Positions 162 to 62,598 are shown, numbered from the stretch's first letter. The stretch: DNA of 64,000 nt from an uncultured Verrucomicrobiae bacterium (GCA_963762565.1 CAVXLD010000005.1:320001-384000), one strand, 5' to 3'. Numbers and translations: made by a program. Notes: generated by a model not told the origin, from the sequence alone.

Positions 162-451
162 GAACCGCAGAACGAACGGAATATAAGATCCGCAGATTAC
201 GCAGATTAACGCAGATTACGTTTAGAGGTCGTGACGCTATTGGGCAAACGTCATGCGGAAATACACAGCTTCTATTGTCGTTCAAGAGCAGATGAAAGCA
301 AATTAAGTTCGAGCCGATTCTCGATGAAAAGAAACCAGTACTGTTAATTCCCAGCGGCAAGTTTAACTCGCTGACAGATCCAACCTATAAACGTAATCTG
401 CGTTAATCTGTGTAATCTGCGGATCTTTACATCTTCTAAGCTCTGCGGTTA
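162..451. repeat. Nested inverted-repeat element (CGCAGATTA-type arms) between araF stop and araG start
   Basis: ~185-224 (aagatccgcagattacgcagattaacgcagattacgttta) pairs with 388-427 with one G-U mismatch. Outer aaccgcaga/tctgcggtt arms; the right one overlaps the araF TAA. Confidence 0.9.
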
Positions 452-1447
452 AAGGCCGAACTCTTGGCGGATCTCTTTCAGGTTTTCCCGGTTCATCAGT
501 TTTCCGCTGGTGAGGGTTAGCTTCGGCGGTTCCTGGTTTTGGGTAATCCAGTTGTACATCAGCGTCGATGTTTCATAACCGTGACGTTTCGGGCTGATCA
601 AAACGGTCCCGAAAAATCCCGTCGGATTCGGCTTATTAAACTCGTTAATGGCCGATTGCGCTCCGCCGATTCCAACGCCGATCATTTTATCGGCTCCGAT
701 ACCGCGCCCTTCGGCGGCGCGTACTGCACCGAGAACTGCCTCATCATTTAGTCCGAATGCCACCCATTTCTGGAAACGCGGATTTTTCGTGAGAGCAATA
801 TTGGCTGCATTGAACGCGTTCTCCGTATCGGTTTTGGCTTGGGGCGCATCAATAATATTTTCCTTTGGGAATCCGGCTGCCAGCAACACTTCCGTCGCTC
901 CGGTTACCCGATCGTGGGCGGTAGGCAATTCCTCATAGGTCACCCGAATTGCACCCACATCTTGCATGTTCCAACCGCGCTTCTTAATCTGGTCGACGAT
1001 TGCTTGCCCAACTTGTTTGCCGATTTCATGAGCCGAGATGCCCATGTGCGGCACCGACGAAATCGGGGCGCCTTTGCCATCCACGAGTTGATCGTCAACC
1101 GTCATTAGTTTGAGATGATCGGCCGTTGCCTTGGCCACAACGGCAGAGCCGAGTTTTACATCCGGCACGCAGATGATGAATCCCTGGGCTTGTTGAGATG
1201 CCAGGTTATCGATCGCGCTCATCACTTTCTCGCCATTTTCCGCTCCAATCTTCACCACCGTGAAGTTCTTTTCTTTAGCGGCCTGTTCAGCAAACTTCCA
1301 TTCATCCTGGAACCAGGGTTCTTCGGGCTGTTTCACCACAAATCCGATTTTTACGGATTCAGCATGGATGACCGTTTGCCAGGACAGGAGGAGGGCGCCA
1401 ACTAGCGTGCAACAACTTAGAACGCGTATAACGTTCAATCTTTTCAT
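449..1447 (-). CDS. araF: L-arabinose ABC transporter periplasmic binding protein
   Basis: Signal peptide; KIGFVVKQPEEPWFQDEW, LMTVDD, GLNDEAVLGAVRA motifs typical of AraF. Confidence 0.9.
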   Translation of the reverse strand: MKRLNVIRVLSCCTLVGALLLSWQTVIHAESVKIGFVVKQPEEPWFQDEWKFAEQAAKEKNFTVVKIGAENGEKVMSAIDNLASQQAQGFIICVPDVKLGSAVVAKATADHLKLMTVDDQLVDGKGAPISSVPHMGISAHEIGKQVGQAIVDQIKKRGWNMQDVGAIRVTYEELPTAHDRVTGATEVLLAAGFPKENIIDAPQAKTDTENAFNAANIALTKNPRFQKWVAFGLNDEAVLGAVRAAEGRGIGADKMIGVGIGGAQSAINEFNKPNPTGFFGTVLISPKRHGYETSTLMYNWITQNQEPPKLTLTSGKLMNRENLKEIRQEFGL

Positions 1448-1482
1448 GATGTATTTTCGGGGGGTTAATGATTTTGGGGGTA

Positions 1483-6329: not shown

Positions 6330-6558
6330 GGAAGGAGCTAGGAGCTAGAAGGGGCCTGTCGTTCTCGTCCTCGTCGTCGTCCTCGTCCTCGATTGAGGCG
6401 TCTTTCGGCCGCTCGCACAATTCGTCCTTTTGGCGAGGCGGCTGGCTTTCGGGGAGACGGCTCGCCACGCCAAAATTTCGAGGACGAGGACGACGACGAG
6501 GACGAGAACGAAGCGCTGGGCGAGTGGCGCCCGAACTCCTAGCTCCTAGCTCCTTTCC
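6330..6558. repeat. Nested IR element: outer GGAGCTA arms, inner perfect 34 bp GAGGAC/GAC arms
   Basis: 6359-6392 is the exact reverse complement of 6478-6511; identical to the arms around the four-helix-bundle gene at 62067/62563. Confidence 0.92.
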
Positions 6559-7666: not shown

Positions 7667-7912
7667 GGAGTGGAGTGGAGTAATGGAGTAATGGAGTAAC
7701 GGAGTAATGGGGAGTGTGCAAGTGGTGGGAGCCAGGAGCGAAAGGGCGAATAGGCGCACCGGCGACAGGCGCTGGGTACAGCTACGAATGGGACCTATAG
7801 GACACAGGTGACTTATGCGACATGATCATATAAGACCTATCGACCCACGCCGGTTCGCCGGTGCGCCCATTCGCCCATTCGCCCATTCGCCCAGCTTTCG
7901 CTCCCGGCTCCT
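7667..7912. repeat. Composite junction element: GGAGTAAT 8-mer array plus nested IRs (GGAGCCAGGAGCG, GGCGAAT, GGGACCTAT types)
   Basis: ggagccaggagcgaaag / ctttcgctcccggctcc and ggcgcaccggcga / tcgccggtgcgcc pair; fills the gap between the HD gene stop and the oxidoreductase start. Confidence 0.85.
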
Positions 7913-8488: not shown

Positions 8489-8649
8489 TGAGAGGTGATT
8501 GGTGATGCGTGATGGGTGATCGGTGGCCGAGACGTGGGTCGGTACCAAGTAACACTCTAGCTCCGAGACATCGGTGACACCTTCGTTGTCTAAGGTTACC
8601 GGTTTGGGCCGGTGTTTCCACCAATCACCAATCACTATTCACCAATCAC
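8489..8649. repeat. IR element with GTGATTG/CAATCAC 7-mer arms
   Basis: 8489-8520 vs 8618-8649; the arm encodes the last ArsR codons RDW*. Confidence 0.8.
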
Positions 8650-10555: not shown

Positions 10556-10750
10556 GCCTGGGCTACGGCGGACAGGCTGTCCTCGAATCCGGTCCACACG
10601 GAGTGATGGAGTGTCGGCCCATCGCCGGGAGGGATCGCGTCCTCGCGATCCGTTGTGACCGAAACCGCGGACGTGTTTTGGTCGCGGACGAAAGTACGCC
10701 GCTGGGTGGTGGCAGGTCCTCGCGGCGCGCGGGGACACGCGCCCTCCCCG
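10506..10750. repeat. REP-like cluster: GCCTCGCTTGCGAGGC palindrome and GGGAGGGATCGCG...CGCGCCCTCCC doublet
   Basis: The same units recur at 18017-18167, 33148-33660, 38590, 40697, 41814, 44878-45157, 55975-56106. Confidence 0.85.
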
Positions 10751-10795
10751 AAGAGCATCCGCCTTGGCGGATTGGAGATGCAGAAGGAGTCACTC

Positions 10796-11461
10796 ATGTT
10801 TGCAGTCATATTTGAAGTTCAACCCAAAAAAGAACGCTACGATCAGTATCTCGAACTCGCCAAGTTCCTGAAACCTGAGCTTGAGCGGATCGACGGGTTT
10901 ATCGACAACGAGCGCTTTGCCAGCCAGAAAGTCGAAGGTCGAGTATTGTCGCTTTCGACCTGGCGCGATGAAAAATCGGTGATTCGCTGGCGTACGTTAG
11001 CAGTTCATCATGGCGTGCAGGAGAAAGGCCGGAATGAGGTATTCGCGGATTATCACCTGCGGGTCGGAGAGATTACGACTGATACCCACGTTCCAGCCGG
11101 CCAATCTGTCAGAGAACAACGTCTGGATACAACCGAGGTTGGCGAGGCAAAAACGGTCACCATAACCGAAGTTGTTCCGCACGCGGGTAATGAGCTGGTA
11201 GCGGATGAACTCAATCTTCTGTTGGGTCTTCCAACTGGCGATAGTGTATTGGAGACCCATTTTTTCCAAAGCATCTATAACCCCGGTAAATGCTTACTTT
11301 TGGCCTCGTGGAAAGGCAGCACTGTGCCCTGGGCTCCGCCAAGGTCCTCGAAAAATGTAAAAGAAATCCGGCACCGAGCCGTCCGGGTCATTCGTGATTA
11401 CGGCATGTTCGATCGCCGGGAAGCGCCGCAATACTATCCAGAAGTGAGAAGTGAGCAGTGA
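10796..11461 (+). CDS. Antibiotic biosynthesis monooxygenase (ABM) domain protein
   Basis: AAGGAG RBS; MFAVIFEVQP, IDGFIDNERF, LSLSTWRDE, RVIRDYGMFDRREAPQY. Confidence 0.85.
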   Translation: MFAVIFEVQPKKERYDQYLELAKFLKPELERIDGFIDNERFASQKVEGRVLSLSTWRDEKSVIRWRTLAVHHGVQEKGRNEVFADYHLRVGEITTDTHVPAGQSVREQRLDTTEVGEAKTVTITEVVPHAGNELVADELNLLLGLPTGDSVLETHFFQSIYNPGKCLLLASWKGSTVPWAPPRSSKNVKEIRHRAVRVIRDYGMFDRREAPQYYPEVRSEQ

Positions 11462-11516
11462 TCGGTGAACGCTCCAAACGCCAAACGCCGAACGCCGAAC
11501 GCCGAACGCCAAACGA
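11443..11516. repeat. Tandem 7-mers (GTGAGNN, then AACGCCR), unpaired arms
   Basis: gtgagaagtgagcagtga contains the ABM stop; aacgcc(a/g) about 5 units. Confidence 0.8.
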
Positions 11517-12058: not shown

Positions 12059-12237
12059 GTGAGAGGTGAGAAGTGATTGGTGAGAGGTGATTGGTGGGCG
12101 CTTGCCCGCGGGTCGCGCCGTCCGACATTTCTCGGGCTTCGATAGGTCCCATGCGCTGCCCGTCCTCCGGGCGTTCCTATCACGAGCCGCGCTGTTACAT
12201 CTCACTTCTCATCAATCACGTCTCACCTCTCACCTCC
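12059..12237. repeat. IR element with GTGAGAG/GTGATTG 7-mer arms
   Basis: 12059-12096 vs 12198-12237. Confidence 0.8.
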
Positions 12238-12298: not shown

Positions 12299-13048
12299 AT
12301 GTGTACTGTTTCATTCATCCCTGACGCCCACGGATTTTATCTGGCGATGAATCGGGACGAGCTTTTGACTCGAGTAGCCGGGTTGCCGCCCGGCCTTTAT
12401 GAAAAGGGCGGTTGTCGGGCGATTTATCCCCGGGAGCCTTCGGGCGGAACCTGGATCGCAATCAATGATCGAGGGATCTGTCTAACGATAGTGAATTGGC
12501 ATCGAGTCGACTGTGTCCCTCCAGGGCCGCTCATCAGCCGCGGTGAAGTGGTGAAGGCTTTGGCCTTGGCGGGCTCTTTATCCGACGTCGAAGAAAGACT
12601 TAAGCGTTTACCACTGTCGCAGATGCGGCCTTTCCGCTTATTCGTGATCGCAGGTCACCAACATTCGGTGACGGAATACTGTTGGGATGTGCGGCAGCTG
12701 CAGAATCATCGGCACAGTTGGACTCGCTGCCACTGGTTCTCGTCCGGTTACGACGAACCAATGGCCGAACGTGTCAGGGCCAAGGTATGCAAAGAGGCTT
12801 GGCGACAATCGGAAGCTGGCACTCTTAGTTGGTTACGTGACTTGCACGCCACGCATTCGCCGGAACCCGGACCGTTCTCGATTTGCATGCATCAGGCCGT
12901 CGCTGAGACTGTGAGCTACACCGAGGTCGCTGTAAGCAATGAAGAGATAAGAATGTGCTATAAGCCGGGCGCGCCGTGCTCGACCGGTAGGGTGTACGAA
13001 AGGACCTTATCAGGGAGTTCGGCGCATTCAGTAAGCCGTAAGCGGTAA
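12299..13048 (+). CDS. NRDE (TANGO2-like) family protein
   Basis: N-terminal MCT, NRDE motif, GGTWI, SRG. Confidence 0.88.
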   Translation: MCTVSFIPDAHGFYLAMNRDELLTRVAGLPPGLYEKGGCRAIYPREPSGGTWIAINDRGICLTIVNWHRVDCVPPGPLISRGEVVKALALAGSLSDVEERLKRLPLSQMRPFRLFVIAGHQHSVTEYCWDVRQLQNHRHSWTRCHWFSSGYDEPMAERVRAKVCKEAWRQSEAGTLSWLRDLHATHSPEPGPFSICMHQAVAETVSYTEVAVSNEEIRMCYKPGAPCSTGRVYERTLSGSSAHSVSRKR

Positions 13049-13205
13049 GCAGTTTAGGAGCTAGGAGCTGGAATCCAGGAGCTAGTAATGCCTTTATGGC
13101 GAATTCGGTCACTTGCGATCCGGAATTTGCGATTCGTCGAGAGCCCCTCCTAGATCCTAGATTCTCGCTCCTAGCTCCTCTTCTGCTTACTGCTTACTGA
13201 TTACT
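13031..13205. repeat. Nested IR element (outer GTAAGCA, inner GGAGCTA arms) supplying the stops of both convergent neighbours
   Basis: 13031-13084 vs 13147-13205; NRDE ends VSRKR* and the small ORF ends GSNQ* inside the arms. Confidence 0.85.
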
Positions 13206-13561: not shown

Positions 13562-13675
13562 AGGAGTTCAGTAGTGCAGGAGTTCCGGAGTTTAGGAGGC
13601 GCGTTCCTATTCAAAGCTCCTAGGAGTCCAGGAGTCCTTATTCTGAACTCCTGTAACTCCTGAACTCCTACTGAA
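13562..13675. repeat. IR element with GGAGTTCA/TGAACTCC 8-mer arms
   Basis: Same family as 30281-30610; abuts the stop at 13676. Confidence 0.75.
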
Positions 13676-14288: not shown

Positions 14289-14389
14289 AATGACAGATGA
14301 CAGATGACAAATGACAGATTTGCAGCGCTGGGTCGAACTCTGAGACGAGCCGACCGCAATTTGTCATCTGTCATTTGTCATCTGTCATT
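14289..14389. repeat. IR element with ATGACAG/A 7-mer arms
   Basis: 14289-14323 vs 14356-14389; encodes the LysR tail MTDDK*. Confidence 0.9.
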
Positions 14390-15342: not shown

Positions 15343-15597
15343 CTGTGAAAAGTAAGAGGTGAGAAGTGAGATGTTTATTCTACCAGCGTTTACGAGCATC
15401 GCACCCTTGGCAAAGCGTCGGTTTACCAGAAATATGTGAGCGCTTTTATGGAGAAATTAACCCCAAACCATAGGCGTCAGTTCCTCTCTTGTCTTCCGTT
15501 GCGCCCTTTGCGTCCTCTGCGCGAGGCTATCTCTTTTCCGTTGCGTCCTCTGCGCGACGTTTCCGAGAGATCAAGAGCGAAACCGGTGGCGGGGGGC

Positions 15598-15768
15598 GTA
15601 AGCAGTAAGCAGTAAGCGGTAAGCGGTAAGCTGTAAGCGGTAAGCTGTAAGCGGTGAAACAGTAATCAGTAACAGAGCGGAGCGATAGTCGCCGATAACA
15701 AGATTCCGTGGAATTGTATTTTACTGATTACTGACCCACTGCTTACTGCTTACTGCTTACTGCTTACT
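15598..15768. repeat. IR element with long GTAAGCA/G 7-mer arms
   Basis: 15598-15675 vs 15720-15768. Confidence 0.9.
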
Positions 15769-15787: not shown

Positions 15788-16354
15788 GTGACTGATCGCC
15801 ACAAACCAAAACCACCCCACCGGAGCGGGCGCGTTTACCTCCGGGACCTCGCGCCTGACGACTGCAAAGAGTTTCTGCTGGTTGTTCATTCCAGCCGTGA
15901 GTTCCATCGGCCTTGGGTTTATCCCCCGGAAACCCGGGCGGCCTTCAACGCCTATTTACGGGGCACCAAATCCGGAGCCTGCGTTCGTCTTTTGATCTGC
16001 CGGCGGAGCGATGATCGCATCGCCGGTTTAGCGAGCCTGAGTCAGATATTTCGCGGCGGCTTTCAGAATGCGTACTTTGGTTTCTGGGCTTCGGCGGAGT
16101 TTGCCGGACAAGGTTATATGACGGAGGGATTGCCCCTGGTTTTGCGGCATGTTTTCAAAACCCTGAAACTGCATCGTCTCGAAGCGAACGTGCAGCCGAC
16201 CAACGAACCATCCAAAGCGTTGATCAAACGTTGCGGTTTCCGTTACGAAGGATTTTCGCCTCGCTACCTCAAGATTGGCGGCCTATGGCGCGATCATGAA
16301 CGCTGGGCCATGCATCGCGACGACTGGCTCTCTAGGGCAGGAGCTAGGAGCTAG
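15788..16354 (+). CDS. GNAT N-acetyltransferase, RimJ/RimL type
   Basis: AGQGYMTEG, LKLHRLEANVQPTN, GFRYEG, YLKIGGLWRDHERWA. Confidence 0.9.
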   Translation: MTDRHKPKPPHRSGRVYLRDLAPDDCKEFLLVVHSSREFHRPWVYPPETRAAFNAYLRGTKSGACVRLLICRRSDDRIAGLASLSQIFRGGFQNAYFGFWASAEFAGQGYMTEGLPLVLRHVFKTLKLHRLEANVQPTNEPSKALIKRCGFRYEGFSPRYLKIGGLWRDHERWAMHRDDWLSRAGARS

Positions 16355-16463
16355 GAGCTAGGAGAACGCTGTCGGCGTTACCCAATCGTCCCTGCTCACT
16401 TAATCGAGGACGATTCAAGCAGCAACGCGCCTACTAGCTCCTAGATTCTAGCTCCTAGCTCCT
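16339..16463. repeat. IR element with GGAGCTA 7-mer arms
   Basis: 16339-16364 (contains the GNAT stop, AGARS*) vs 16431-16463. Confidence 0.85.
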
Positions 16464-16982: not shown

Positions 16983-17405
16983 ACTCGAACCGCAGATGAA
17001 CCCACATTTAGATTGGGACGAGAGGCCGCGCTAGAACTGTGGTCAGTCACTCGGCCGAGCCACGGTCAAACAAAGAGAAATGATCCGCAGATTACGCAGA
17101 TTACGCAGATTTCGTTCTGAGCTCTGATACGGCCGGGGAGAGAAACAAATCTTTAGCAGCCGACACGCGTTCCTTTGCCTCGCGTTGCTCAGTCGCCTCG
17201 AAACGTAATCTGCGTAATCTGCGAAATCTGCGGATCGTTCCTGTTTTTGGTGGCGTTGCTCGATCCAACGCGTGTTTCGCTCTATGGCGTTGCCCGTCCG
17301 GATTTTCTCATCTGCGTCAACCTGCGTTCATTTCACCCTGGAGGATTTCGGGGCTGCGGTATGGCTTTAAGTTCGCGTCCCTTCGTATGTATTCGCGGTT
17401 CGAGT
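16983..17405. mobile_element. Composite nested non-coding element, copy 1 (copy 2 at 52011-52465)
   Basis: Terminal actcgaaccgc/gcggttcgagt; inner CGCAGATTA arms; ~17010-17118 and ~17215-17330 closely match ~52116-52225 and ~52313-52427. Confidence 0.8.
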
Positions 17406-17448: not shown

Positions 17449-18015
17449 ATGGTCTTCGATCCTTTTCACCAATATCTTTCTCCGGATTTCAGTTTCCGGA
17501 TAGCACGGGCCGGCCACGAGCTCGACGGCTATTGGGCGCTCCGGAGACAGATTTTTTGCGAAGAACAAGGCATCTTCCAGCGAACAGATCGGGACGAGTT
17601 TGATGAACACGCGATCCCAATCGTATGTGAGACCATAATAGCAGGCATGGAAGATGGGGTTGTCGGCGTAGTGCGAATTGACGAAAGAGAACCGGGTCTT
17701 TGGTATGGGAGCCGGTTAGGGGTTGCTCCGGAGTATCGCATTATTCGTCAGCTTAGCCCGAGTGTTTCCGTTCGAAACAGTCTGCCCGTATATCGCGGTT
17801 CGGGAGGACTGGGAGCCGGACTTATTTACAAAGCAGTTTCAACCGCTCATGCGCTTGGCTGCATCGAGTTTCTGGCCACTGTCCAACACCAGAATGCCAG
17901 GTTCTTTCAACGGTTACACTGGGAACCGCTTGGCTCGCTTGATTTATTCGGGTTGCCTCACGTTAAGATGCGAGCCGATCTGAATTATTATCGGCCGGCC
18001 AAGCATGTGTTTTGA
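17449..18015 (+). CDS. nitE: MSMEG_0567/Sll0786-family N-acetyltransferase (Nit1C)
   Basis: LRRQIFCEEQGIF..TDRD, PGLWYGSRL, AVSTAHALGC, FFQRLHW, MRADL; cluster context. Confidence 0.88.
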   Translation: MVFDPFHQYLSPDFSFRIARAGHELDGYWALRRQIFCEEQGIFQRTDRDEFDEHAIPIVCETIIAGMEDGVVGVVRIDEREPGLWYGSRLGVAPEYRIIRQLSPSVSVRNSLPVYRGSGGLGAGLIYKAVSTAHALGCIEFLATVQHQNARFFQRLHWEPLGSLDLFGLPHVKMRADLNYYRPAKHVF

Positions 18016-18016
18016 A

Positions 18017-18210: not shown

Positions 18211-18213
18211 AGT

Positions 18214-20194: not shown

Positions 20195-20231
20195 AATTTA
20201 TGGCAGAGCTCTACCGGTTAGCGTTCAAGTT

Positions 20232-20281: not shown

Positions 20282-20307
20282 AACAAATCCGCTCCGGCAA
20301 ACCCAGT

Positions 20308-20324: not shown

Positions 20325-20397
20325 CTCCTCTAGCATCAATCCGCGCAGCGCCCTCCCGCTCGCTACCATCCAGTCAACAGCAGATAAACCAATTTAT

Positions 20398-20880: not shown

Positions 20881-20883
20881 CCG

Positions 20884-29281: not shown

Positions 29282-30336
29282 ATTTCGTAAAAGCAGCTTA
29301 TCGGTTTCTCGGCCGCCTCGAAGGCTTCGCCATTGCGATGGTGTTGCTGGTCCTCTACGTCGTGTTGATCTTGGCCGCTCCGGCAGTGTTCAGCAAGCCG
29401 ATGATCTACATGTCGTTTTTGGAGACCGTGCCGCCCACCCTGATCGCGGCGCTAGGGTTGACGCTCGTGATCACCGCGGGTGAGATCGATTTAAGTTTTC
29501 CAGCCGTGGTGTCGTTGTCGGGCTTCGCGCTCGCTTGGGGGTGGAGGACGTTCGACCCGGCCTACGGTGCGTTGATTGGCATCGTGCTCGCCTTGGCGGC
29601 CGGCGCTCTCGTCGGGTATATCAATGGCCTGATGGTCGCGCGGATTGGCGTCCCATCGATAATGGCAACCTTAGCCGCCAATTTCTTTTGGTACGGTATC
29701 TCGATCCTGCTCGCCGGAGGTCTCCAGCAGACATTGAAGGGGAGCGAAGACAATCTCGTTCACCAGATTCTGGTGGGCCGGCCGTTTTTTGGTATTCCAC
29801 TTCAGGCGTTGTGGTCGTTGGCGCTCGCGGTTTTTCTCTGGTTTATCCTTAACCGCCATAAGTTCGGAGAAAGCGTCATGTTCATCGGCGACAACGCCAA
29901 CGTCGCCCGGGTGATGGGGGTTAACGTCGAAGCGACACGCGTCCGGCTATTCACGTTCCAGGGCATGATCGCCGCTTTTTCTGGGATTATCGTAACCTTG
30001 GATATTGGGGTGTTCTACCCGGATCAAGGCAACTTTCTTTTGCCGGCGATGGCCTCTGTATTTGTCGGTGGAACCTCGATCGCTGGAGGCGCCGGCTCTA
30101 TCTTCGGAACCTTTTTCGGATCGTATGTCATCGGCTCCCTGGCAGCCGGCGTGGTTGCAACCACGATCAGCGGTTACTGGGTCCAGGTTGTCGAAGGCGG
30201 CGTTATGGCAGCCGTTGTGGTCCTGAACGCCGCGACGGGCAAAGGAGATTTCGCTTCGTTGTTCAGCCGATTCCGGGTCAAAGGAGTTCAGGAGTTCGGG
30301 AGTTCAGGAGTTCAGAAAGACGAACGGCCGGGGTGA
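29278..30336 (+). CDS. Sugar ABC transporter permease (RbsC-like)
   Basis: GEIDLS, VPSIMATL, IGDN..AR..GV, VGGTSIAGG; ATGA overlap with the ATPase. Confidence 0.9.
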   Translation: MNFVKAAYRFLGRLEGFAIAMVLLVLYVVLILAAPAVFSKPMIYMSFLETVPPTLIAALGLTLVITAGEIDLSFPAVVSLSGFALAWGWRTFDPAYGALIGIVLALAAGALVGYINGLMVARIGVPSIMATLAANFFWYGISILLAGGLQQTLKGSEDNLVHQILVGRPFFGIPLQALWSLALAVFLWFILNRHKFGESVMFIGDNANVARVMGVNVEATRVRLFTFQGMIAAFSGIIVTLDIGVFYPDQGNFLLPAMASVFVGGTSIAGGAGSIFGTFFGSYVIGSLAAGVVATTISGYWVQVVEGGVMAAVVVLNAATGKGDFASLFSRFRVKGVQEFGSSGVQKDERPG

Positions 30337-30610
30337 GCGTGTCGGCGTATGGCCGTATCGGCGGGGGGCACGCGTTGGGCGCTGCGAACGGATGGGACCT
30401 ATAGGACTTATGGGACTGATAGGATCCGTCCCATTAGTCCCATCGGTCCCATAAGTCCTATCTATCCGCAGCGCCCAACGCGCGCCCCCCCGCCGACACG
30501 CCCAAACGCCTTCCGAACTTCGCCCCCGCGTTTTCCGTTAACGTTCACGGCCGGACACGTTTTTTAGCGCGATTCTGAACTCCTTGAACTCCCGAACTCC
30601 TGAACTCCTT
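30281..30610. repeat. Three-level nested IR element between permease and binding protein
   Basis: Outer 30281-30317/30573-30610 (GGAGTTCA); middle cggcggggggcacgcgttgggcgctgcg / cgcagcgcccaacgcgcgcccccccgccg; inner GGGACCTAT-type 9-mers. Confidence 0.92.
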
Positions 30611-33147: not shown

Positions 33148-33660
33148 GGCCGTGGAGCGCTGCCTCGCTTGCGAGGCCGAAAGGGGTCGCCATCCGTGGA
33201 GCGCGCCTCGCTTGCGAGGCCGTGGTGAACAAGGCGATATCGGGAATGGACACGGTTCCTTACCTGCGCTCTGTAACGGCCCGATTTGAGCTGAGGACTG
33301 GATCGCTATCTGGTCTTGCAATCACGATATCTTCCGATCCCGGGTCCGGTGGCTAATTGCCGTACGATAGAGCACTGTACGAGCAGGCGTTTATTTAACT
33401 GTGTCGCCCTGTTTACCACGGCCTCGCAAGCGAGGCACGCTCCACGGGGTGGCGACCCCTTCGGCCTCGCAAGCGAGGCACGCTCCACGGGGTGGCGACC
33501 CCTTCGGCCTCGCAAGCGAGGCACGCTCCACCGGGGTGGCGACCCCTTCGGCCTCGCAAGCGAGGCACGCTCCACCGGGGTGGCGACCCCTTCGGCCTCG
33601 CAAGCGAGGCAGCGCTCCACGGGTGGCGACCCTACGGCCTCGTCAGCGAGTCAGCGCCCC
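33148..33660. repeat. REP-like array: 2 units facing 5 (+1 degenerate) inverted units of 42-44 bp
   Basis: Units start at 33419, 33462, 33505, 33549, 33593, 33635; core palindrome GCCTCGCAAGCGAGGC. Confidence 0.92.
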
Positions 33661-39777: not shown

Positions 39778-40617
39778 TCACCTCTCCCGTTTCACGCGTG
39801 TCACCAACTGGGTTGGGTCGACTACGCGCAGAGCGATCACCAGCGGGATCAGGGCAGTCACCATATAGATAACGGCCATGGCGTCGATCGATTGGCCGGC
39901 TCGAACGCCGGCTGCGAACACTGTGTAATATAAGGCCACAACGAGTGTCTGACTATCCGGACCCGCGGTCAAAAAGGTTAGTTCGAACATACCGATCGTG
40001 CGCACTAGAACCAGGAGACCGGCGGCAAGGATACCGGGTGCAAGTAGCGGCACAAGAACGTGCCTAAAAAGGCGTAGTGTGCCCGCGCCAAAAACCCGAG
40101 CGGCAGCTTCCAGCTTCGGATCGATCTGTTCAATAAACGGTGTCATCACCAAGATAACAAATGGCACCGCAGGGACGAGGTTGCCTAGAATGACACCGGT
40201 GATAGTGCCACCCAGATGCAAGCTGTAGAGCAAGGTCGCCAGCGGGATCCCGTAGGTCATGGGCGGAACCAGTAATGGTAAAACAAAAATCAAAAGGGTG
40301 ATTCGTTTAAATCGAAAATTTCGGCGCGCCAAAGCGTAAGCAGCAGGGACACCGAGCAGAAGTGAAATTGCTACCACCGCAAACACGACCTCGACAGTAA
40401 CCGTCAATACACTATCTAGCTGGAACTCGCTCCACGCTGTCGAATACCACCGCAAAGTGAACCCGCTCGGCAACCACGTGCCCAGCCAGGTAGTAGCAAA
40501 AGAATTAACCACCACCACGGCGATTACGGCGAGAACGTTGAGAACAAAAAACCCGATCGCAACCCAGACTAGGAGGCGGGGGAGGTGATTGGTGAGTGGT
40601 GATTGGTGATTGGTCAT
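39778..40617 (-). CDS. PotC-like ABC permease
   Basis: FTLRWY, PAAYALAR, LEAAARVFGA; N-terminus TNHQSPLTNH is encoded by a repeat arm. Confidence 0.88.
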   Translation of the reverse strand: MTNHQSPLTNHLPRLLVWVAIGFFVLNVLAVIAVVVVNSFATTWLGTWLPSGFTLRWYSTAWSEFQLDSVLTVTVEVVFAVVAISLLLGVPAAYALARRNFRFKRITLLIFVLPLLVPPMTYGIPLATLLYSLHLGGTITGVILGNLVPAVPFVILVMTPFIEQIDPKLEAAARVFGAGTLRLFRHVLVPLLAPGILAAGLLVLVRTIGMFELTFLTAGPDSQTLVVALYYTVFAAGVRAGQSIDAMAVIYMVTALIPLVIALRVVDPTQLVTRVKRER

Positions 40618-40896
40618 AACGCCTGGGGTTTCGCCCTACGCAATTTGCTAGGCTCCTCGCGAGGCTTCTTTGGCGGATTGTGTGCGGGCGAAATAGCCGG
40701 GGAGGGATCGCGTCCTCGTCCGGCAGCCGCCGGATTGTTACCGAAGTCGAGGATGTCTGGGGATCGGCGAGGAGTTCACCTGTTGTTTGTCGTTCGCTGT
40801 TCACGTGCGCCCTCACCAATCACCGCGGAAACGCGGCATTGAGCTTTCTACCTGGCCCTTTGCATGTCCAATCACTAATCACTTATCACCTCTCAC
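40581..40896. repeat. IR element (GTGATTG arms) enclosing a degenerate REP doublet
   Basis: 40581-40617 vs 40869-40896. Confidence 0.8.
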
Positions 40897-41936: not shown

Positions 41937-43091
41937 TCATTCGGGAGGAAAAACGAGCACGCGCTCCGCCGGTATCGCCAAACGCAGCCTCTCGCCTGCG
42001 ACCACGCGTTTCTGAGTTCGTACGTGCAGTAGAAGCCCGGCAGACGTCACAACATCGACCAGATAATCGCGTCCACAGTACTCGACGATCTCCGCTTGAC
42101 CCGACAACACGTTTCCTACGTCGACTGACCCCTGGCTCATCTCGGGTGCGTCCACCTGAACGTCATCGGGTCGGATGGCAGCAACGGCCCGGCCGGTCGT
42201 GAGCGGCTCCTGGGCAACGCCTTCGAGCCGCATACCGGGCCCGGTCAGTGAAACTCGATTCTCTAGAATCCGGTCGACTTCAAGATCGAGGATGTTCCGA
42301 TAGCCCATAAACCGCGCGACTTTCAGATTCGCGGGTCTGGTATAGAGCTCTTCCGGTGCATCGATCTGCAGTGTCCGGCCCTCGTTCATCACGACTATTC
42401 GGTCGGCCAGTGACAACGCTTCATCCTGATCGTGCGTGACATAGATAGTGGTCCGCTGCAAATCGCGATGGATACGCTTAATCTCGGCGCGCATCTCCAG
42501 GCGTAATTTGGCGTCGAGATTAGATAGAGGTTCGTCCATGAGAATAAGTGGCGGCTCGATCACGATGGCGCGGGCGATGGCAACCCGTTGTTGTTGGCCG
42601 CCCGAAAGCCGGCCCGGTAACTTATCTGCGTGCGCTTGCAGTTGAACCAGCTCCAGTGCAGCATCGACTCGGCCACGGATTTCCTTTTTTGGAAATCCCC
42701 GCATCATGAGTCCAAAAGCAACATTCCGGCGCACAGTCAGATGCGGAAAGAGGGCGTAATTCTGGAAAACCATTCCGAAACCGCGCCGTTCAGGAGGCAA
42801 TTCATCAATCCGCTGCTGGTCCAGCCAAATGCTTCCGCCTGTCAACGGCAACAACCCCGCCACGCAATTCAGCGCGGTCGATTTGCCGCAGCCCGAGGGG
42901 CCGAGTAAGGCGATAAACTCGCCTGCTTGAATCGTCAGATCCATCCCGGCTAGAGCAACCGCGCTCCCGAAATGCCGGCTCACCCGCTGAAGACAGAGCT
43001 GTTTAAAGGTTTGCGGCCGACCTTCGCCAAGCCATTCTTTCCGGTTAGCGTTCGGCGTTTGGCGTTCGGCGTTCGGCGATGCAGAGGACAT
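41937..43091 (-). CDS. PotA-like ABC ATPase with TOBE domain
   Basis: [35 protein letters not shown]; start probably ATG 43091. Confidence 0.92.
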
Positions 43092-43257
43092 TAGGTTCCA
43101 AATTTCTATACGGCAGATCGCCTGCAAGGAGTGTTTTGCTCGAGCCTAGATAAATCCGCAGTCGACAGTGGCTGCCCCCGACCGCGCCAAACGCCGAACG
43201 CCGAACGCCAAACGCCAAACGCCGAACGCCAAACGCCAAACGCCAAACGCCAAACGC
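43044..43257. repeat. IR element with GGCGTTY/RAACGCC 7-mer arms (about 4 vs 10 units)
   Basis: 43044-43078 vs 43183-43257; encodes [10 protein letters not shown] in the ATPase N-terminus. Confidence 0.9.
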
Positions 43258-44575: not shown

Positions 44576-45157
44576 TCGTCCTCGAAACTCTGGTAGGGCG
44601 AGGCTCCAAAACGTAATAGGCTGCTGGCATACTTAGCGCCCGCGGCTACTCCGTCTAGTAGGTTACGTAAGCATGGCCGAGCCGGGGATGGAGCGTGGCA
44701 AAGATTGAGCGTGCTCTCTTGTTGCGAATCCGGTCTTGGGTCATCGCCCTGGTGTGGCACGCTTATCGGACCAAATCATACTGTCCCTTTCGGGACGGGC
44801 CGCCTTCTTACACCATTCCAGGCACTAAACTGCCTGGCTACCATCGTAAAGTCCCTCCAGGACAGAAACCTTACACGAGCCCATCGCCAGGAGGGATCGC
44901 GTCCTCGCGATCAGCTGTTACCGAAGCCGAGCACGTGTTCTAATCATCGGCGAAAATACACGCTTCGGTTATGGCACGTCCTCGCGGCGCGCGGGGACGC
45001 GCGCCCTCCCGAATACGTGACCACGCGCCCATCGCTGGGAGGGATCGCGTCTCGTGATCGTTGTTAACGAAGCCAAGCACGTGTTCTAATCACCGGCGAA
45101 AATAGACCCTTCGGTTATGGCACATCCTCGCGGCGCGCGGGGACGCGCGCCCTCCCC
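44576..45157. mobile_element. Non-coding composite REP-type element, copy 1 (last ~140 bp module tandemly duplicated)
   Basis: Colinear and highly similar to 55647-56106; modules at 44878-45010 and 45027-45157. Confidence 0.8.
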
Positions 45158-45230
45158 GATCTGCACCCTGCGAACGCTGTTGGAGAGGGACATCCTCCAA
45201 CCCGAAAACCTAAAACCTAAAACCTCCAAC

Positions 45231-47010
45231 TCATGACCCTTTTAAGTAACGATCAAAGAATTGGAGCTCCCGCCGGATCGCATCGATCTGGTTCTCGCGC
45301 TTACTGAATCTGTGCCCCTCATTCGGATAATAATGAGCCTCCACAGTCTTCCCCGCATCACGGAGGATCTTTACCACTTGTTCGGCTTCTTCTTTGGGAA
45401 CGCGGATATCGTTATCGCCTTGTAGCACTAACAGGGGCGCCTTTGCGTTCCTGATGTACGCCAAGGGAGAATCAGCCTCGTAAATGGAACGATCCTTATC
45501 CGGATCACCGAGGAGCGATTTTTCGTATTGCTGAAGAAGCGGGTCTTCGTGCTGCAGCATGGTCAACCAATTGATAATGCCGAACATTTCGACCACGGCT
45601 GCCCTACATCCGGTGTCTTACCAATCGCCATCATCGTCATATAGCCGCCATAGGAGCCTCCGGTGATCCCGATTTTCTTCGGATTGACGTAGCCGGTGGC
45701 TTCAAGGAATTTCGCCGCATAAACTTCGTCTTGTAAGTCGCCGCCACCTAGGTCTTTGACATTCGCTTTTTGAAACTCGATGCCGTACCCGGTCGATCCT
45801 CGCACATTTGGAGCGATGCAAACGTAGCCGCGCGTAACCAAGGTAATGATCCCGCGGCTGAAGTTATCAACGGTTTGTCCGGTAGGTCCTCCGTGCGGAA
45901 GCACAATTCCAGGGTTCGACCCGTCTCGCTTGAGGTTGAACGGTGCCCAAACAAAGGCGCTAATGATCTTACCATCGAAAGTTTTGTAGTGGACCAATTG
46001 AGAGGCGGGGATTTTGGCCGCGCTGAGGCTCGCAATCGCAGAAAACGTTAACTGCCGCGCCTGATGCCGGGCAATATCGTAATCCACGGATGATTCGCTC
46101 TCGAGCTCTCGTGTGCGACTAGGAGAGGTCCTTTTTGCGGCGAGAACGGGTTGTGTTCGGTGGTCCTATTTAATCCGTCTGGGAAACTGATTTTCTCGCC
46201 GTGCCGGGTGGCGGTTTCTGCGAGATAGGCGTCGACCCGTCCGTCTTCGTTCACATAATAAGTAAATTGTTTGCAATCCTGGGGAAGAATACCGAACGCT
46301 TCCACTTCAGGTCAGTTACCCAGGTTGGTTTTTTGGTAAGGAGATCGATCTCCGCGACATTAAAGTAACCGCCTGGCCGGTCTGCTGATACCAGAAGAGT
46401 AGCGCCGTCCGGCGAAATGGAAGAAAGGGTAGTCCGCACTTCTCCCTGGTGCGGTGTTAGGTTTTCCAATTTGCCGGTGGCGACTTCGATTCGATAGATA
46501 TCGCTGTCAGTGAACCCAGCGTTGGAACGGGTTGAATAAATGAATTGCCATCTGGACTCCAGACTATGTCGACCGACGAATGGTCCGGGCTCTTTTCCTG
46601 GGTGAGGTTACGGACGGTGTGCCGGTTCCAATCGAGCACCGCGACGTCGGTGGATGGCGATGTTTTGGGCTTATAAAGCAGAGCCAATGATTGTCCGTCA
46701 GGTGACCATGTCGGGTCCGTTTCGGAGATGTCTGGTGTGTTAGTGAGGTTAACGACCGCACCGCCGTCACTGGGAATCGCGTAAATATCATACATCTCAT
46801 CTCCGCCTCGATCCGATGTGAAGGCGATCCATTTTCCATCGGGTGACCAAGCGGCGCCCACCTGGCGTTCATCGGATTGGCTGAGTTGAATCGGCCATCC
46901 GCCGTCCGCTTTACCTTCCACAGATTGTATCGACCGGTGAAGGCTGAAAACGATATTTCATCCGCGACCAGGCCCGCCGGCAAGCGAGCGAGTGTAGAAA
47001 AGGTCATCAA
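45231..47010 (-). pseudogene. S9 peptidase (PD40 propeller + catalytic domain), about 5 frameshifts, 5'-truncated
   Basis: Successive fragments: WSPDGKWIAF, PHGGP, PNVRGSTGYG, GGSYGG, QGDND.RVP, NEGH. Confidence 0.88.
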
Positions 47011-47031: not shown

Positions 47032-47208
47032 CTACAGATTACACAGATTACTGCGGATTTCGTATTTCAGGTTCCGCGATCACTACCAAGCTGAACGCCA
47101 AATAGACAGACCAAAGGGATGTATTTCATAACGGGGTATCCGCACTGGTCTCCCGCCTCGATAGCCGCCGACTTCTGGCGTCAATCCGAAATCTGCAAAA
47201 TCTGCGGA
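47032..47208. repeat. Degenerate CGCAGATTA-type IR element
   Basis: acagattacacagatt / aatctgcaaaatctgcgg. Confidence 0.65.
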
Positions 47209-47619: not shown

Positions 47620-47670
47620 CCCAGCGCTCTTTTTGCCACAAGCCCGAGCAAACGCCGGCAAAACGGGAAA

Positions 47671-48032
47671 GATCCGCAGATTACGCAGCGAAAGTTCCGG
47701 GGTAAAATTACGCAGATTTCGTTGCGAGGTGAGTTAGCATCACGGGTTAAGGAGAACGTATTGGTACGAAAGATTTATCTTTCTCGCCGGCGGCATCAAA
47801 GCTCACAACGAAATCTGCGCAATCTGCGAAATCTGCGGATCATTTCTCTTTGTGACCGTGGCTCCACCGAGTGACCGACGAGAGTTCTAGAACCATCTGC
47901 GCCCCAGCTAAATCAGTGTCTATCTGGTTCATCCGCCTCCGCAAGGCCTGCGGCGCGACAGGTTCTGCGGTTAGGGTCTTTGTTCCTGTTCGTTCCCAGG
48001 TTTCCCGCTCGTGATTGGTGCCCATCTGCGGT
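47671..48032. repeat. CGCAGATTA IR element (47671-47841) followed by unpaired ATCTGCGGTT arms with mini-insertions
   Basis: gatccgcagatt...aatctgcggatc; inserts at 47689-47706 and ~47933-47963. Confidence 0.8.
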
Positions 48033-48275: not shown

Positions 48276-48402
48276 GTGAGCAGTAAGCCGTAAGCAGTAA
48301 GCCGTAAGTGAGCAGTCACCCCAGCAGCGACTTTCGATCGAGTAGCGAAGCTGACGACTGATTTACTGCTCACTGCTCACTGCTTACTGCTCACTGCTTA
48401 CT
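48276..48402. repeat. IR element with GTAAGCA/GTGAGCA 7-mer arms
   Basis: 48276-48318 vs 48358-48402. Confidence 0.85.
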
Positions 48403-50389: not shown

Positions 50390-50462
50390 CGACCCTAACG
50401 GGATTCGAACCCGTGTTACCGCCGTGAAAGGGCGGTGTCCTAGGCCACTGGACGATAGGGTC
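50390..50462 (-). tRNA. tRNA-Glu(TTC), CCA not encoded
   Basis: GACCCTA acceptor stem, D loop AGTGGCCTAGG, anticodon loop CTTTCAC, GGTTCGAATCC T arm. Confidence 0.97.
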
Positions 50463-52010: not shown

Positions 52011-52465
52011 GAACCGCAGAGGTAACCGCGAATAGACACGAATACTACCGCGAATGCACGCGAATGGAGAACCAACCGCAGCCCCGAAATCCTCCGGGGT
52101 GAAATGAACGCAGATTTAGATTGGAACGAGAGGCCGCGTTAGAACCGTGGTGAGTCACTCGGCCGGGCCACGATCAAACAAAGAGAAATTATCCGCAGAT
52201 TACGCAGATTACGCAGATTTCGTTCGGGGGTTAGCTAGCCCGCGAGGTAAAGAAGAACGTGTCACTACGATAGATGCGTTTCAATCGCCGGTCGTATCAA
52301 GGCTCCAAAGGTAATCTGCGAAATCTGCGGATCGTTCCTGTCTTGCCGGCTTTGCTCGATCCAACGCGCGTCTCGCTCTATTGCGTTGCCCGTCCGGACG
52401 TTATCATCTGCGTCAATCTGCGTTCATCTGCGGTTGAGGTGTTTGTTCGTGTCTATTTGCGGTTA
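52011..52465. mobile_element. Composite nested non-coding element, copy 2, between rsmD and waaA
   Basis: Outer 52023-52042/52446-52465 arms; encodes the RsmD tail ANRHEQTPQPQMNAD*. Confidence 0.8.
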
Positions 52466-53000: not shown

Positions 53001-53280
53001 CGTGAGAGGTGAGAGGTGAGAAGTGAGAGGTGGTGCGGCGTAAGCAGTAAACAGTAAGCAGTAAGCAGGGATTGGTGATTGGCGGTGCCTGGGGTGCCGG
53101 TGTTCGATAGGCTGTTTTGCCGGCCTGCTCTCAGGCTCGTTTGTTGCTCGATTGAATGACGTGTTCCGCTCTATCGCATAGCCGGACTACCAGATCATCT
53201 GCGTACATCTGCGTTCATTTCACCCCGGAGGATTTCGGGGCTGCGGTTGGACTGTCTTAATTTCGCGTCCATTCGTGGTT
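53001..53280. repeat. Stack of unpaired arms (GTGAGAG x4, GTAAGCA x4, GTGATTG, ATCTGCG type)
   Basis: 53001-53082 and 53195-53280. Confidence 0.75.
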
Positions 53281-55634: not shown

Positions 55635-55646
55635 GGGTGGGGGCGC

Positions 55647-56106
55647 TTCGTTCTCGTTCTCGTCCTCGTCGTCGTCCTCGAAACTCTGGTAGGGCGAGGC
55701 TCCAAAACGAAATAGGCCGCTGGCATACTTAGCGCCCGCGGCTGCTTCGTCTAATAGGTTACGCAAGCATGGCCGAGCCGGGGATGGCGCATGCCAAAGA
55801 TTGAGCGTGGTCTGTTGTCGCGAATCCCGTCTTGGTTCATCGCCCTGGTCGTGCCCCGCGTATTGGACCCAATCATACCGTCCCTGCGGGACGGATCGTG
55901 CGGGGTGCCCTTTCCAGGCATTTCATGCCAGGCTACCATCGTAAAGTCCCTCCGGGACAGAAACCTCACACGAGCCCGTCGCCGGGAGGGATCGCGTCCT
56001 CGCGATCCGTTGTTAACGAAGCCGAGGGCGTGTTCTAATCACCGGCGAAAATACGCCCTTGGGTTATGGTTTATCCTCGCGGCGCGCGGGGACGCGCGCC
56101 CTCCCC
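55647..56106. mobile_element. Non-coding composite REP-type element, copy 2
   Basis: Single GAGGAC-type arm + GGTAGGGCGAGGCTCC + GTCCC..GGGAC palindromes + GGGAGGGATCGCG doublet; matches 44576-45010. Confidence 0.8.
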
Positions 56107-56176
56107 GAATTGCGCCGCGTGTCCGACTTGCGGCAAAGCACGACAAAAAGCCCGGGGTACGCTAGAATATTGCCGG

Positions 56177-58936: not shown

Positions 58937-59214
58937 GGTGGGGCGAGGCTCCGGAACAACCCACCCTTTTGAACGAAGCCGCTTACCATGCTCGACTACT
59001 GGTTTGCGGTACCTAAGGACTGCCGAGCCGCTGTGTGTTCTGCCCACGCTGGAAACGGCTCGGCAGCGCAACTTGGTCTCGCCATCAGGATCCGGTCTAG
59101 ATCGATCGCTCTGCGAACGCCTGGCGGCCATTCCGGAGCCTCGCCCCACCAAAGAAGCAATTCGGATATGGCGCAACACTCCAGCACTCCAACGCTCCGG
59201 TACTCCATCACTCC
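58937..59214. repeat. REP doublet (20 bp perfect IR) plus CACTCCAN 8-mer arm between glnE and addB
   Basis: ggtggggcgaggctccggaa 58937-58956 / 59131-59150; 8-mers at 59175-59214. Confidence 0.85.
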
Positions 59215-59232
59215 GCGCGCCTCTAACCCCCC

Positions 59233-62034: not shown

Positions 62035-62066
62035 ACCCAAGATATAGAATAACCCGTGACCTCTTA

Positions 62067-62598
62067 ATCGTTCTCGTCCTCGTCGTCGTCCTCGTCCTCG
62101 ATTTTGACCCTGCGTTTTCCACCTCCCATTAACTCACCATTCCACATCATGTTCGACCACGAAAAACTCGACGTCTACCAAATCGAACTGAAATTCCTCG
62201 GTTGGGCAACAGAGTTTTTGGTCGAATTGGCCGAGGTACCGTCTCCTGTAAATAAACGAGAGCTATCCGATCAACTCGATCGTGCGAGTCTTTCCGCGCT
62301 CTTAGACACCGCCGAAGGCAACGGAAGACGTCAGGGCAAACAACGTGCTAAATTCTTCGATGACGCTCGTAGATCAGCATTTGAATGCGCGGCGTGTTTG
62401 GACGCATCGGTGGCGAAGGAATTGTCGACGGTGGAGCGGATTCAGCCCGGCAAAGACCTGTTGCAGCGTATCGTGGCGATGCTGTCGAAACTGGTCGAGA
62501 GGTTCGATCCTGATTCGTACCGCGTGAGGGAAGGTGAAAACGAGCTGGGTGAGGCGGAACCTATCGAGGACGAGGACGACGACGAGGACGAGAACGAT
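62067..62598. mobile_element. Intervening element: perfect 36 bp inverted repeats enclosing a four-helix-bundle gene
   Basis: 62067-62102 is the exact reverse complement of 62563-62598. Confidence 0.8.

Follow-up and report, generated by a model that had tools for sequence, protein, structure and literature searches.

The question raised by this stretch of DNA is why so many of its gene ends carry one and the same architecture, in which a tandem array of a short unit is followed, after a variable middle, by the reverse complement of that array. The window (the whole stretch that was analysed, 64,000 nt of one strand, with a GC content of about 55%) derives from an uncultured Verrucomicrobiae bacterium (GCA_963762565.1 CAVXLD010000005.1:320001-384000) and is a piece of a soil Verrucomicrobia genome with about 20 long hairpin elements at gene ends. 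At the level of sequence, the comparisons reported here show a family of repeat-armed palindromes that is tied to gene ends and copied within the genome, and whose members are replaced, nested, and flipped between genomes. We suggest, with a probability of about one half, that these are palindromic, recombining junction modules whose transcripts form duplexes that would act as RNase III or stability sites, by analogy with the intervening sequences (IVSs) of rRNA.

Tandem Repeats Finder, together with a scan of our own, identified 58 short-period arrays in the window (period, 5 to 11 nt); the units that build the arms are 6 to 10 nt long and are present in 2 to 10.6 copies, and at least nine unrelated units are in use. 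A first-pass annotation of this DNA had reported mirrored arrays of named units in about 20 gaps, and both arrays and units were found where it had placed them, although the range of 40 to 450 nt that it gave for the middles has to be replaced by a measured range of 4 to 460 nt. The window contains 89 inverted-repeat pairs no more than 700 nt apart. Stems with at least 20 matched bases numbered 53, compared with 0 or 1 in each of five Markov shuffles, and stems with at least 24 matched bases numbered 35, compared with none in the same five shuffles; clustering of the stems by their centres gave about 20 loci. An inverted partner within 700 nt was present for 34 of the 58 arrays by a strict 6-mer test, whereas 2,000 permutations of array identity and orientation gave a mean of 4.4 and a maximum of 17, so the arms are paired far more often than randomly placed microsatellites would be, a comparison that the first-pass annotation had proposed as a check. 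Direct partners were at chance level (4 versus a null mean of 4.5). Measured against 30 dinucleotide shuffles per candidate, 20 of 22 candidate elements folded with z scores of -4.7 to -19.0. Two candidates were rejected, 39582-39720 failing the folding test (z, -1.4) and 53002-53218 consisting of solo arrays only (z, +0.7), and two hairpins proved to be of another build, with unique-sequence arms at 58937-59150 (z, -5.6) and a 44-nt unit at 33150-33657. A search of the window with Rfam at gathering thresholds returned only a tRNA-Glu; no known RNA family covers the elements, and no rRNA was found.

The arms mirror each other down to the order of variant units, pairing being complete at 6359/6478 (34 of 34 positions) and 62067/62563 (36 of 36) and nearly so at 185/383 (43 of 45), and the number of units can nevertheless differ between arms (4.4 versus 10.4 at 43042 and 10.6 versus 6.7 at 15598). 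Arms are often composite or nested, and many elements are layered, as exemplified by 13028-13205, 6332-6555, 30281-30610, and 52023-52465. Each family has a single polarity, and the same arm comes first on whichever strand is transcribed because an inverted repeat reads alike on both. This 5' arm contains more than 55% purine in 15 of 20 elements; stop codons in all three frames were present in 8 of 20 5' arms, compared with 3 of 20 3' arms and 2.2% of random 36-mers. In the heptamer families, the unit of the first arm contains a stop codon, and since a heptamer with TAA, TAG, or TGA shifts the frame by one per unit, three units close all reading frames, while the complementary C/A-rich array is stop-free. 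A ribosome-binding role for the AGGAG- and GAGGTGA-type units was considered and rejected, as the start codons checked lack such a motif; these units appear in the 5' arm on either strand because the elements are palindromic.

Placement relative to genes was determined on a gene map built from open reading frames (ORFs) and Pfam. Forty-one arrays are intergenic, seven lie within 60 nt of a stop, eight lie within 150 nt of the start of a maximal ORF, and two weak ones are internal to genes; most of the maximal ORFs at these eight arrays are over-extended. In all, 56 of the 58 arrays are outside gene interiors. Elements occupy 16 of the 32 gaps of at least 100 nt and, by type of junction, 11 of 33 co-directional, 4 of 7 convergent, and 2 of 8 divergent junctions, and two of the convergent gaps hold one element per gene end (13028 and 13562; 47673 and 48276). 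Of the 11 occupied co-directional junctions, 8 have the upstream stop inside the element or no more than 9 nt from the 5' arm; the next start is in the 3' arm or at most 25 nt from it in 5 and is 62 to 103 nt past it in the other 6. Over the window as a whole, arrays provide the stop codon of six genes. The proposal that the stem brings the upstream stop next to the downstream start holds in only about half of the junctions. Solo arrays are also oriented to stops and starts: C/A-rich arrays end 1 to 18 nt before six starts (those of the GFO, NIPSNAP, LysR, 114-aa ORF, RsmD, and AddB genes), and the stop-rich reading comes after four stops (ABM, S9 fragment, WaaA, and YegS-like), with the solo array at 47034 as an exception to this rule. 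For annotation, this means that arrays supply stop codons, are translated at some N and C termini, and inflate maximal ORFs.

The same junctions were followed in relatives. A query of genome contigs with AddB retrieved six syntenic loci (L001 to L006; 81 kb in total) from Verrucomicrobiota or Chthoniobacterales-type metagenome-assembled genomes, with AddB identities to the window of 83 to 86% in five loci and 56% in L006; the comparison was made at 80% nucleotide identity. L001 is labelled an uncultured alphaproteobacterium, yet its 22.8-kb locus shares synteny with those of Verrucomicrobiota, and its AddB has 86% identity to that of the window. Among 23 orthologous junction sequences, 18 folded at z scores of -4 or lower, with units and insides that differ. 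At the rsmD/asmA junction, the window has GTGAGAG and GTAAGCA solo arrays, L001 has a 290-nt hairpin with CGGGAACGAG units (z, -24), L003 and L004 have GCCGGGARC units, and L006 is without structure. The outer arms of 10-nt units at waaA/rsmD are kept in four genomes, while the inner layers vary and are largely missing in L001, and L006 has ATGACAG arms; a clean empty site was not found at this junction, as L001 is without the inner layers but the indel ends within an array. Five different states occur among the six genomes at glnE/addB. The addB/addA junction holds an element with a gene inside it in the window, in L002, and in L003 (where it is cut by the contig end), whereas L001 has retained the arms and 13 nt from the start of the ORF, after which comes an unrelated palindrome of 225 nt, and L004 and L005 have a palindrome of this L001 type between arm remnants. 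Between L004 and L005, this palindrome is inverted as a whole, its middle being 95% identical in reverse complement and 58% in the forward direction, and across the three genomes, 88 predicted pairs are kept, 6 of them via changes on both sides. Unique-sequence palindromes of about 225 nt are located at junctions of the relatives (L001 12982-13204, L004 12905-13129, L005 2132-2356, and L001 21343-21567), one of them taking the place of the four-helix-bundle gene between addB and addA. Where the first-pass annotation had proposed to align orthologous junctions, the elements of relatives were found to be different, missing, or flipped.

The element between addB and addA (62067-62598; z, -9.6) has fully paired arms at 62067-62102 and 62563-62598 around a 460-nt middle, and within it lies, on the plus strand, the ORF 62149-62625, a member of the four-helix-bundle family of 23S rRNA intervening-sequence proteins (PF05635, 50.9 bits with a cut-off of 33.8; TIGR02436, 51.3 bits with a cut-off of 24). 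Judged by its layout, the element is built exactly like an rRNA IVS, with terminal arms and a four-helix-bundle gene in the loop. The left arm is about 47 nt upstream of the ATG, the right arm encodes the acidic tail of the protein, and the TGA overlaps the ATG of addA. Over 158 codons, the ratio of nonsynonymous to synonymous substitution rates (dN/dS) against L002 was 0.05, with dS near saturation, and that of AddB was 0.09; the ORF is intact and under strong purifying selection. Three arm positions differ between the window and L002, and two of these have changed on both arms, though this alters amino acids encoded by the right arm.

Arms identical to these over 34 to 36 nt are present 56 kb away at 6359-6511, a 153-nt element with an 85-nt middle and no ORF, and a solo arm is found at 55643-55698. 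As members of the gene family use the right arm as coding sequence, the simplest origin for such copies without an ORF is a gene-bearing element; the arms of L002 already differ, which dates the copying to after the divergence from L002. At least this family produces miniature derivatives, as the identical arms of the ORF-less copy show. A second dispersed family, of about 340 to 390 nt and defined by CGCAGATTA, comprises three or four copies with 76 to 79% identity and is the family whose internal sequence is conserved, the middles of the other families being unrelated within the 64 kb covered. These dispersed copies (the shared arms and the CGCAGATTA family) support, for some families, the earlier idea of a mobile or self-propagating class. 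No transposase domain was detected among the 54 window ORFs scanned, nor was a gene for a REP-associated tyrosine transposase (RAYT) found in the window, and the sole full-length, gene-bearing version holds a four-helix-bundle gene that is no known transposase.

The enclosed gene belongs to a large family: among 4,570 candidates, 4,438 were related to the window protein at an E value of 0.001 or lower. The acidic tail is kept in 91 of the 120 best relatives (64 to 91% identity); the remaining 29 are for the most part short or variant, and extra inserts break up several of the tails. In P0025, P0028, P0030 to P0032, and P0063, all relatives of the window protein, the acidic tail is broken by 10 to 30 extra residues, and such interruptions would fit small palindromes inserted in the arm-encoding array, like those in the DNA of L001, L004, and L005. 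A tblastn search of the window and the six loci for further four-helix-bundle genes returned only the L002 and L003 orthologues. A second superfamily gene is found in L004, on the strand opposite to its neighbours and enclosed by arms that consist of 9-nt units (TIGR04258, 68.5 bits with a cut-off of 40; TIGR02436, 25.0 bits with a cut-off of 24; PF05635, below cut-off), and L001 has an unrelated palindrome at the corresponding junction. In tblastn searches of 72,556 plasmids, the window protein found no match and the L004 protein found one record, a Prevotella plasmid, whose protein as a query matched only itself. In this single, weak case, the gene is not enclosed by arrays and a 9-nt-periodic palindrome directly follows it: at 2228-2299 of the Prevotella nigrescens plasmid (L007), NNCCTAGNN-type units come after the annotated four-helix-bundle suffix-domain gene, and no array was found upstream of that gene.

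The module that we envisage consists of mirrored tandem arrays of 6- to 10-nt units around a variable middle, placed at or just behind a stop codon; its arrays lengthen or shorten on one arm independently, and yet the arms stay mirror images down to their variant units. Because the first arm is stop-rich in all frames, insertions would be tolerated at the 3' ends of genes, where they can even supply the stop, and the C/A-rich second arm would serve as the leader or the first codons of the next gene. A read-through transcript would be expected to form a near-perfect duplex of 25 to 60 bp, which would fall into the substrate class of RNase III and present a barrier to 3' exonucleases, and a junction cut or capped in this manner would have the stabilities of its neighbouring cistrons uncoupled. 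The stem of the 23S rRNA IVS is processed in this manner, and the repetitive extragenic palindromic (REP) hairpins of operons act likewise. The stems in the window have the length that is known to be required by RNase III.

Several observations weigh against this proposal. Two elements lie at divergent junctions; 5 of the 23 orthologous junction sequences are unstructured, so that the hairpin is not obligatory; the middles of the identical-armed elements at 6359-6511 and 62067-62598 are unrelated; the four-helix-bundle gene is present in 1 of the approximately 20 window elements only; and the elements were counted over the 64 kb of the window and 81 kb from relatives. Mismatches between arms comprise 14 of the G-U type on the sense strand, 12 on the antisense strand, and 27 others, and the lack of a G-U strand bias gives no pointer to selection on RNA over DNA, or to anything beyond the simple youth of the copies, so that the mismatch test neither supports nor excludes selection at the RNA level; recombination or fold-back copying between arms could equally keep the arms in step. 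A rather unlikely, though by no means negligible, reading is that the elements are purely selfish or neutral palindromic DNA that slippage, fold-back copying, and recombination generate, that stays at junctions only because it is harmless there, and that has no RNA role. Fast turnover at orthologous junctions, with some left unstructured, the unbiased mismatches, the flipping of a whole element between relatives, the differing array lengths of paired arms, and the nesting of elements in other elements all fit such a history, but the consistent polarity, with the stop-rich arm first and solo arrays oriented to stops and starts, the persistence of a hairpin at most junctions through replacements of its sequence, and an enclosed gene that overlaps the start of addA and is under strong purifying selection speak against it.

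The processing of transcripts is not the only function that a stem at a stop codon could have. If it hid the downstream leader or start and were opened when a ribosome completes the upstream gene at its foot, the outcome would be translational coupling, as has been proposed for cyanobacterial short tandemly repeated repetitive (STRR) hairpins (PMC2670836); the 8 of 11 co-directional junctions with a stop inside the element or no more than 9 nt from the 5' arm and the 5 of 11 with a downstream ATG in the 3' arm or at most 25 nt from it (at the first base of the arm in 40582-40892) are compatible with this mechanism, whereas the starts 62 to 103 nt past the arm in the remaining 6 and the elements in convergent (4/7) and divergent (2/8) junctions, where coupling is impossible, make it a doubtful general explanation. 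Transcription terminators or attenuators would also place strong stems directly behind stops, including one per gene end in convergent gaps, but a T-run of at least four follows the 3' arm in only 1 of 19 elements (background, 3.4%), many elements reside inside operons of genes that are obligatorily co-expressed (ABC transporter subunits and addB/addA), and stems of 25 to 60 bp with middles of up to 460 nt are unlike intrinsic terminators; the T-run result led us to reject the intrinsic terminator, as the first-pass annotation had also done, and we regard this class of explanation as very improbable. We give as little credence to the view that the elements serve gyrase, nucleoid proteins, or the four-helix-bundle protein itself as structural or binding sites in DNA: symmetric arms that read alike on both strands, mismatches without RNA strand bias, and the binding of integration host factor (IHF), polymerase I, and gyrase by bacterial interspersed mosaic elements (BIMEs) (PMC3184786) would suit such sites, and at least nine unrelated units speak against one sequence-specific binder, as does a placement that tracks stop and start codons rather than spacing along the DNA. 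Should junction hairpins indeed be processed like the IVSs of rRNA, they would represent a widespread and fast-evolving means by which a dominant soil lineage adjusts how strongly neighbouring operon genes are expressed relative to one another, and they would give a testable context to a large four-helix-bundle family that has no function assigned and is related to Avd.

The individual elements illustrate the range of forms. The first hairpin of the window, at 185..427, has CGCAGATTA arms (185-229 and 383-427; middle, 153 nt; z, -11.8) and is found 21 nt beyond the stop codon of a gene for a sugar-binding protein (449-1447, minus); the junction had been called araF/araG, but its left partner is outside the window and cannot be named. 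A composite dispersed copy of the CGCAGATTA family, about 390 nt long, is present at 16996..17386, with the CGCAGATTA hairpin 17056-17262 as its core (z, -8.2), and a copy in inverted orientation is found at 47645..47890, with its core (47673-47841; z, -6.4) 53 nt after the stop of a MIF/tautomerase-like gene. A CGCAGATTA-type left arm at 47034-47051, upstream of the latter gene, could pair with the right arm at 47802-47841 downstream of it, in competition with the nearer left arm at 47673-47728, which makes an alternative structure around the whole gene possible. The CGCAGATTA core also forms the innermost layer (52185-52335) of the three-layer nested hairpin between rsmD and waaA at 52023..52465 (z, -8.0), inside outer 10-nt units of the CGCGAATRGA type and a CAGAT-type layer; an array of this element supplies the rsmD stop.

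Other nested or layered elements are 6332..6555, which lies 7 nt after the stop of the GFO/IDH/MocA gene and has outer AGGAGCT arrays around inner TCGTCC/GAGGAC arms at 6359-6392 and 6478-6511 (z, -12.7), and 13028..13205, with outer GTAAGCN and inner GGAGCTA arms (46 of 56 positions paired; z, -9.4), an array of which supplies the TAA stop of a TANGO2-like gene. The convergent gap occupied by 13028..13205 is shared with a second element, 13562..13669, which has AGGAGTTC arms and lies 6 nt after the stop of a PG_binding gene (z, -5.4). Arrays of AGGAGTTC also form the outside of a near-perfect hairpin of 330 nt at 30281..30610 (z, -15.7), which overlaps the end of a permease gene upstream of a binding-protein gene; unique sequence follows, and then a palindrome of 9-nt units (30363-30490) with a 4-nt spacer.

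Simple heptamer hairpins that supply a stop are found at 8495..8649, 14289..14389, and 16339..16463. The 5' arm of the first (GGTGATK arms; sense strand, minus; z, -7.4) provides the stop of an ArsR-type gene, and the ATG of the HD-domain gene lies about 9 nt after its 3' arm; the second has ATGACAG arms (29 of 32 positions paired; middle, 37 nt; z, -8.7) and ends the LysR gene, and the third, with AGGAGCT arms, supplies the TAG of a GNAT gene (z, -8.8). The HD-domain gene is itself followed, 4 nt after its stop, by a hairpin with arms of 8-nt units (7728..7911; CGCCCATT side, 7848-7893; z, -6.7). Arms of GTGAGAG/GTGATTG with 29 of 32 positions paired enclose a 111-nt middle at 12059..12233 (z, -8.1), and GTAAGC-type arms recur at 15598..15768 (GTAAGCA, in 10.6 and 6.7 units; divergent junction; z, -9.7) and at 48276..48402 (GTAAGCM, 23 nt after the stop of an ABC ATPase gene; z, -5.3). 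Inside transporter operons, GGTGATT arms lie between two ABC permease genes at 40582..40892 (z, -5.6), 6 nt after the upstream stop, and the 3' arm has the downstream ATG (40617) as its first base, so that this arm is translated; GGCGTTY arms (4.4 and 10.4 units) lie between binding-protein and ATPase genes at 43042..43257, likewise 6 nt after the upstream stop (z, -4.7).

Solo arrays that lead into a start are located on the minus strand at 7667..7710 (sense reading, TTACTCCA; ending about 4 nt before the GFO/IDH/MocA ATG), at 15345..15371 (TTCTCAC type on the sense strand; 1 to 2 nt before the LysR ATG), and at 53002..53068 (sense readings, TGCTTAC and CTCTCAC; ending 5 nt ahead of the rsmD start) and on the plus strand at 59174..59215, where a CACTCCAG array downstream of the hairpin 58937-59150 ends 18 nt before the addB start. 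Two solo arrays on the plus strand at 11440..11515 serve both ends of a junction, AGAAGTG supplying the TGA of the ABM gene and CCAAACG/CCGAACG ending 12 nt before the NIPSNAP ATG. A solo TCGTCC arm on the plus strand at 55643..55698, which is 86% identical to the reverse complement of the arm 6461-6516, is found 13 nt past the yegS-like stop. Another solo array, AGGTTTT, comes after the stop of an S9 prolyl oligopeptidase gene with PD40 repeats (45231-46921, minus), which is split into at least three ORF pieces and is probably a pseudogene.

The cluster at 33150..33657, at a divergent junction, is made of 5.4 tandem and about 2 inverted copies of the 44-nt unit, each with its own small GC-rich hairpin (z, -19.0); it looks like a BIME-type cluster and not a repeat-armed hairpin, and one further copy of the unit is present at 18118-18181. 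A dispersed repeat of 146 nt without an Rfam match occurs in four copies, two of them in tandem (10617-10752, 44879-45159, and 55974-56109), and lies within a duplicated segment of 440 nt that is 87% identical between 44576-45014 and 55672-56110 and that contains an ORF of about 120 aa, assigned to no family and located upstream of glnE. In the region 17449-24732, which is almost without hairpin elements, unlike the preceding 11 kb, a conserved cluster of the nitrogen starvation type encodes an MSMEG_0567/Sll0786 GNAT protein (TIGR04045, 202 bits), an AIR-synthase-like protein, a CN hydrolase, a radical SAM protein, and an FAD oxidoreductase. The gene for tRNA-Glu (anticodon ttc; 50390-50462, minus) lies between an ABC-2 permease gene and waaA in a region that is 88 to 95% conserved in L003 and L004.

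Our literature search returned no paper that describes repeat-armed hairpins from Verrucomicrobia or a PF05635 gene within a hairpin at an mRNA junction. The kind of element is nevertheless already known, and the suspicion that it might be undescribed has to be dropped, as inverted heptamer arrays have been published for Xanthomonas (PMC4692102) and STRR hairpins for cyanobacteria (PMC2670836); what is new is the range of different units, the way in which elements are nested, their turnover at fixed junctions, and the connection to an intervening-sequence gene. Xanthomonas genomes each contain 70 to 75 convergent pairs of GGGAATC heptamer arrays on opposite strands (Rehm et al. 2015, PMC4692102); 89 to 93% of these arrays are intergenic, with average distances of 28 nt to the upstream ORF and 160 nt to the following one, mostly in co-directional and rarely in divergent gaps, and their lengths vary between related species (PMC4692102). 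The window elements share with them the short-unit arrays in close inverted pairs, the intergenic position nearer the end of the upstream ORF, the mostly co-directional neighbours, and the variation in length or content between related genomes. The Xanthomonas arrays, however, are built of one G-rich unit and were studied as quadruplex formers, whereas the window uses at least nine units, most of which are unable to form quadruplexes, and goes beyond Xanthomonas in its composite and nested arms, middles of up to 460 nt, enclosed gene, and stop-supplying arrays. The STRR sequences, repeats of 7 bp that form hairpins between hupS and hupL in several cyanobacteria and that may stabilise transcripts or couple translation (PMC2670836), are alike in placing tandem repeats of about 7 nt as hairpins between genes of one operon but belong to a different phylum, and they are known here from a short description only. 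The TAACTGA repeats of Beggiatoaceae and cyanobacteria are sense oriented, end a few nucleotides upstream of starts, and sometimes overlap the end of the upstream ORF (MacGregor 2015, PMC4679880); they match the solo arrays of the window in their position before starts, but 169 sets are direct and one is inverted, and they are predicted to be unstructured (PMC4679880), whereas the window arrays are mostly paired into hairpins.

Dispersed intergenic palindromes are also the hallmark of REPs and BIMEs and of the hairpin-type MITEs (miniature transposable elements with inverted repeats) Correia, ERIC, and QMITE2. Transcripts of Correia elements are cut by RNase III. BIMEs can affect mRNA stability (PMC3184786), and a QMITE2 insertion at the 3' end of a gene extends the protein, with the stem suggested as a possible RNase III substrate (PMC5896051). 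REPs and BIMEs consist of a GC-rich palindrome of 20 to 40 nt with one conserved sequence, clustered in alternating orientation, a form that only the 44-nt-unit cluster at 33150-33657 resembles. With MITEs, the window elements have terminal inverted repeats in common but not a target-site duplication beyond chance: the best flanking direct repeat measured 0 to 4 nt in 20 elements, as in random spans, although fuzzy boundaries could mask short ones. The arms, moreover, are tandem arrays, the middles are mostly unrelated between copies, and neither a transposase nor a RAYT gene was found among the window ORFs scanned, in agreement with the first-pass view that these are not classical REPs and leave no target duplications. 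An intrinsic terminator, with its short GC-rich stem and U-tract, differs again from these long stems with large middles.

A further likeness is with the IVS of rRNA, an analogy that the first-pass annotation had drawn and that has gained from the PF05635 gene inside an element and from a shared heptamer at an RNase III cut. The 23S rRNA IVS of Coxiella burnetii is 428 nt long, has a terminal stem of 28 bp that is cut by RNase III, and carries in its loop, in sense orientation, an S23p ORF of the PF05635 family; three or four tandem GACAGAT heptamers, in strain-variable number, lie just upstream of this ORF in the region of the 5' arm, and the 5' RNase III cut is at the first of them (PMC4990558). 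In tandem, GACAGAT is the same as the ATGACAG array of 14289-14389 and of the waaA/rsmD hairpin of L006, and the Coxiella IVS and 62067-62598 both have a terminal inverted-repeat stem and an ORF of the PF05635 family in the loop. The host of an IVS is an rRNA helix, whereas all of the window elements lie between protein genes, and the Coxiella ORF is decaying and probably untranslated, in contrast to the window ORF, which is under purifying selection. PF05635 is in turn related to the Avd protein of diversity-generating retroelements (PMC10053308). A broader and unlikely idea is that the IVS is part of a wider class of repeat-armed hairpin cassettes, some with an S23p/Avd-like gene, that colonise any transcribed junction; the Xanthomonas arrays, STRR hairpins, Beggiatoa leader repeats, and Verrucomicrobia elements would then be ORF-less miniature offspring, and the four-helix-bundle protein might recognise the repeat-built duplex and act in its copying or processing. 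The comparison links heptamer-repeat observations from four phyla that, in the accounts cited, have so far been treated separately.

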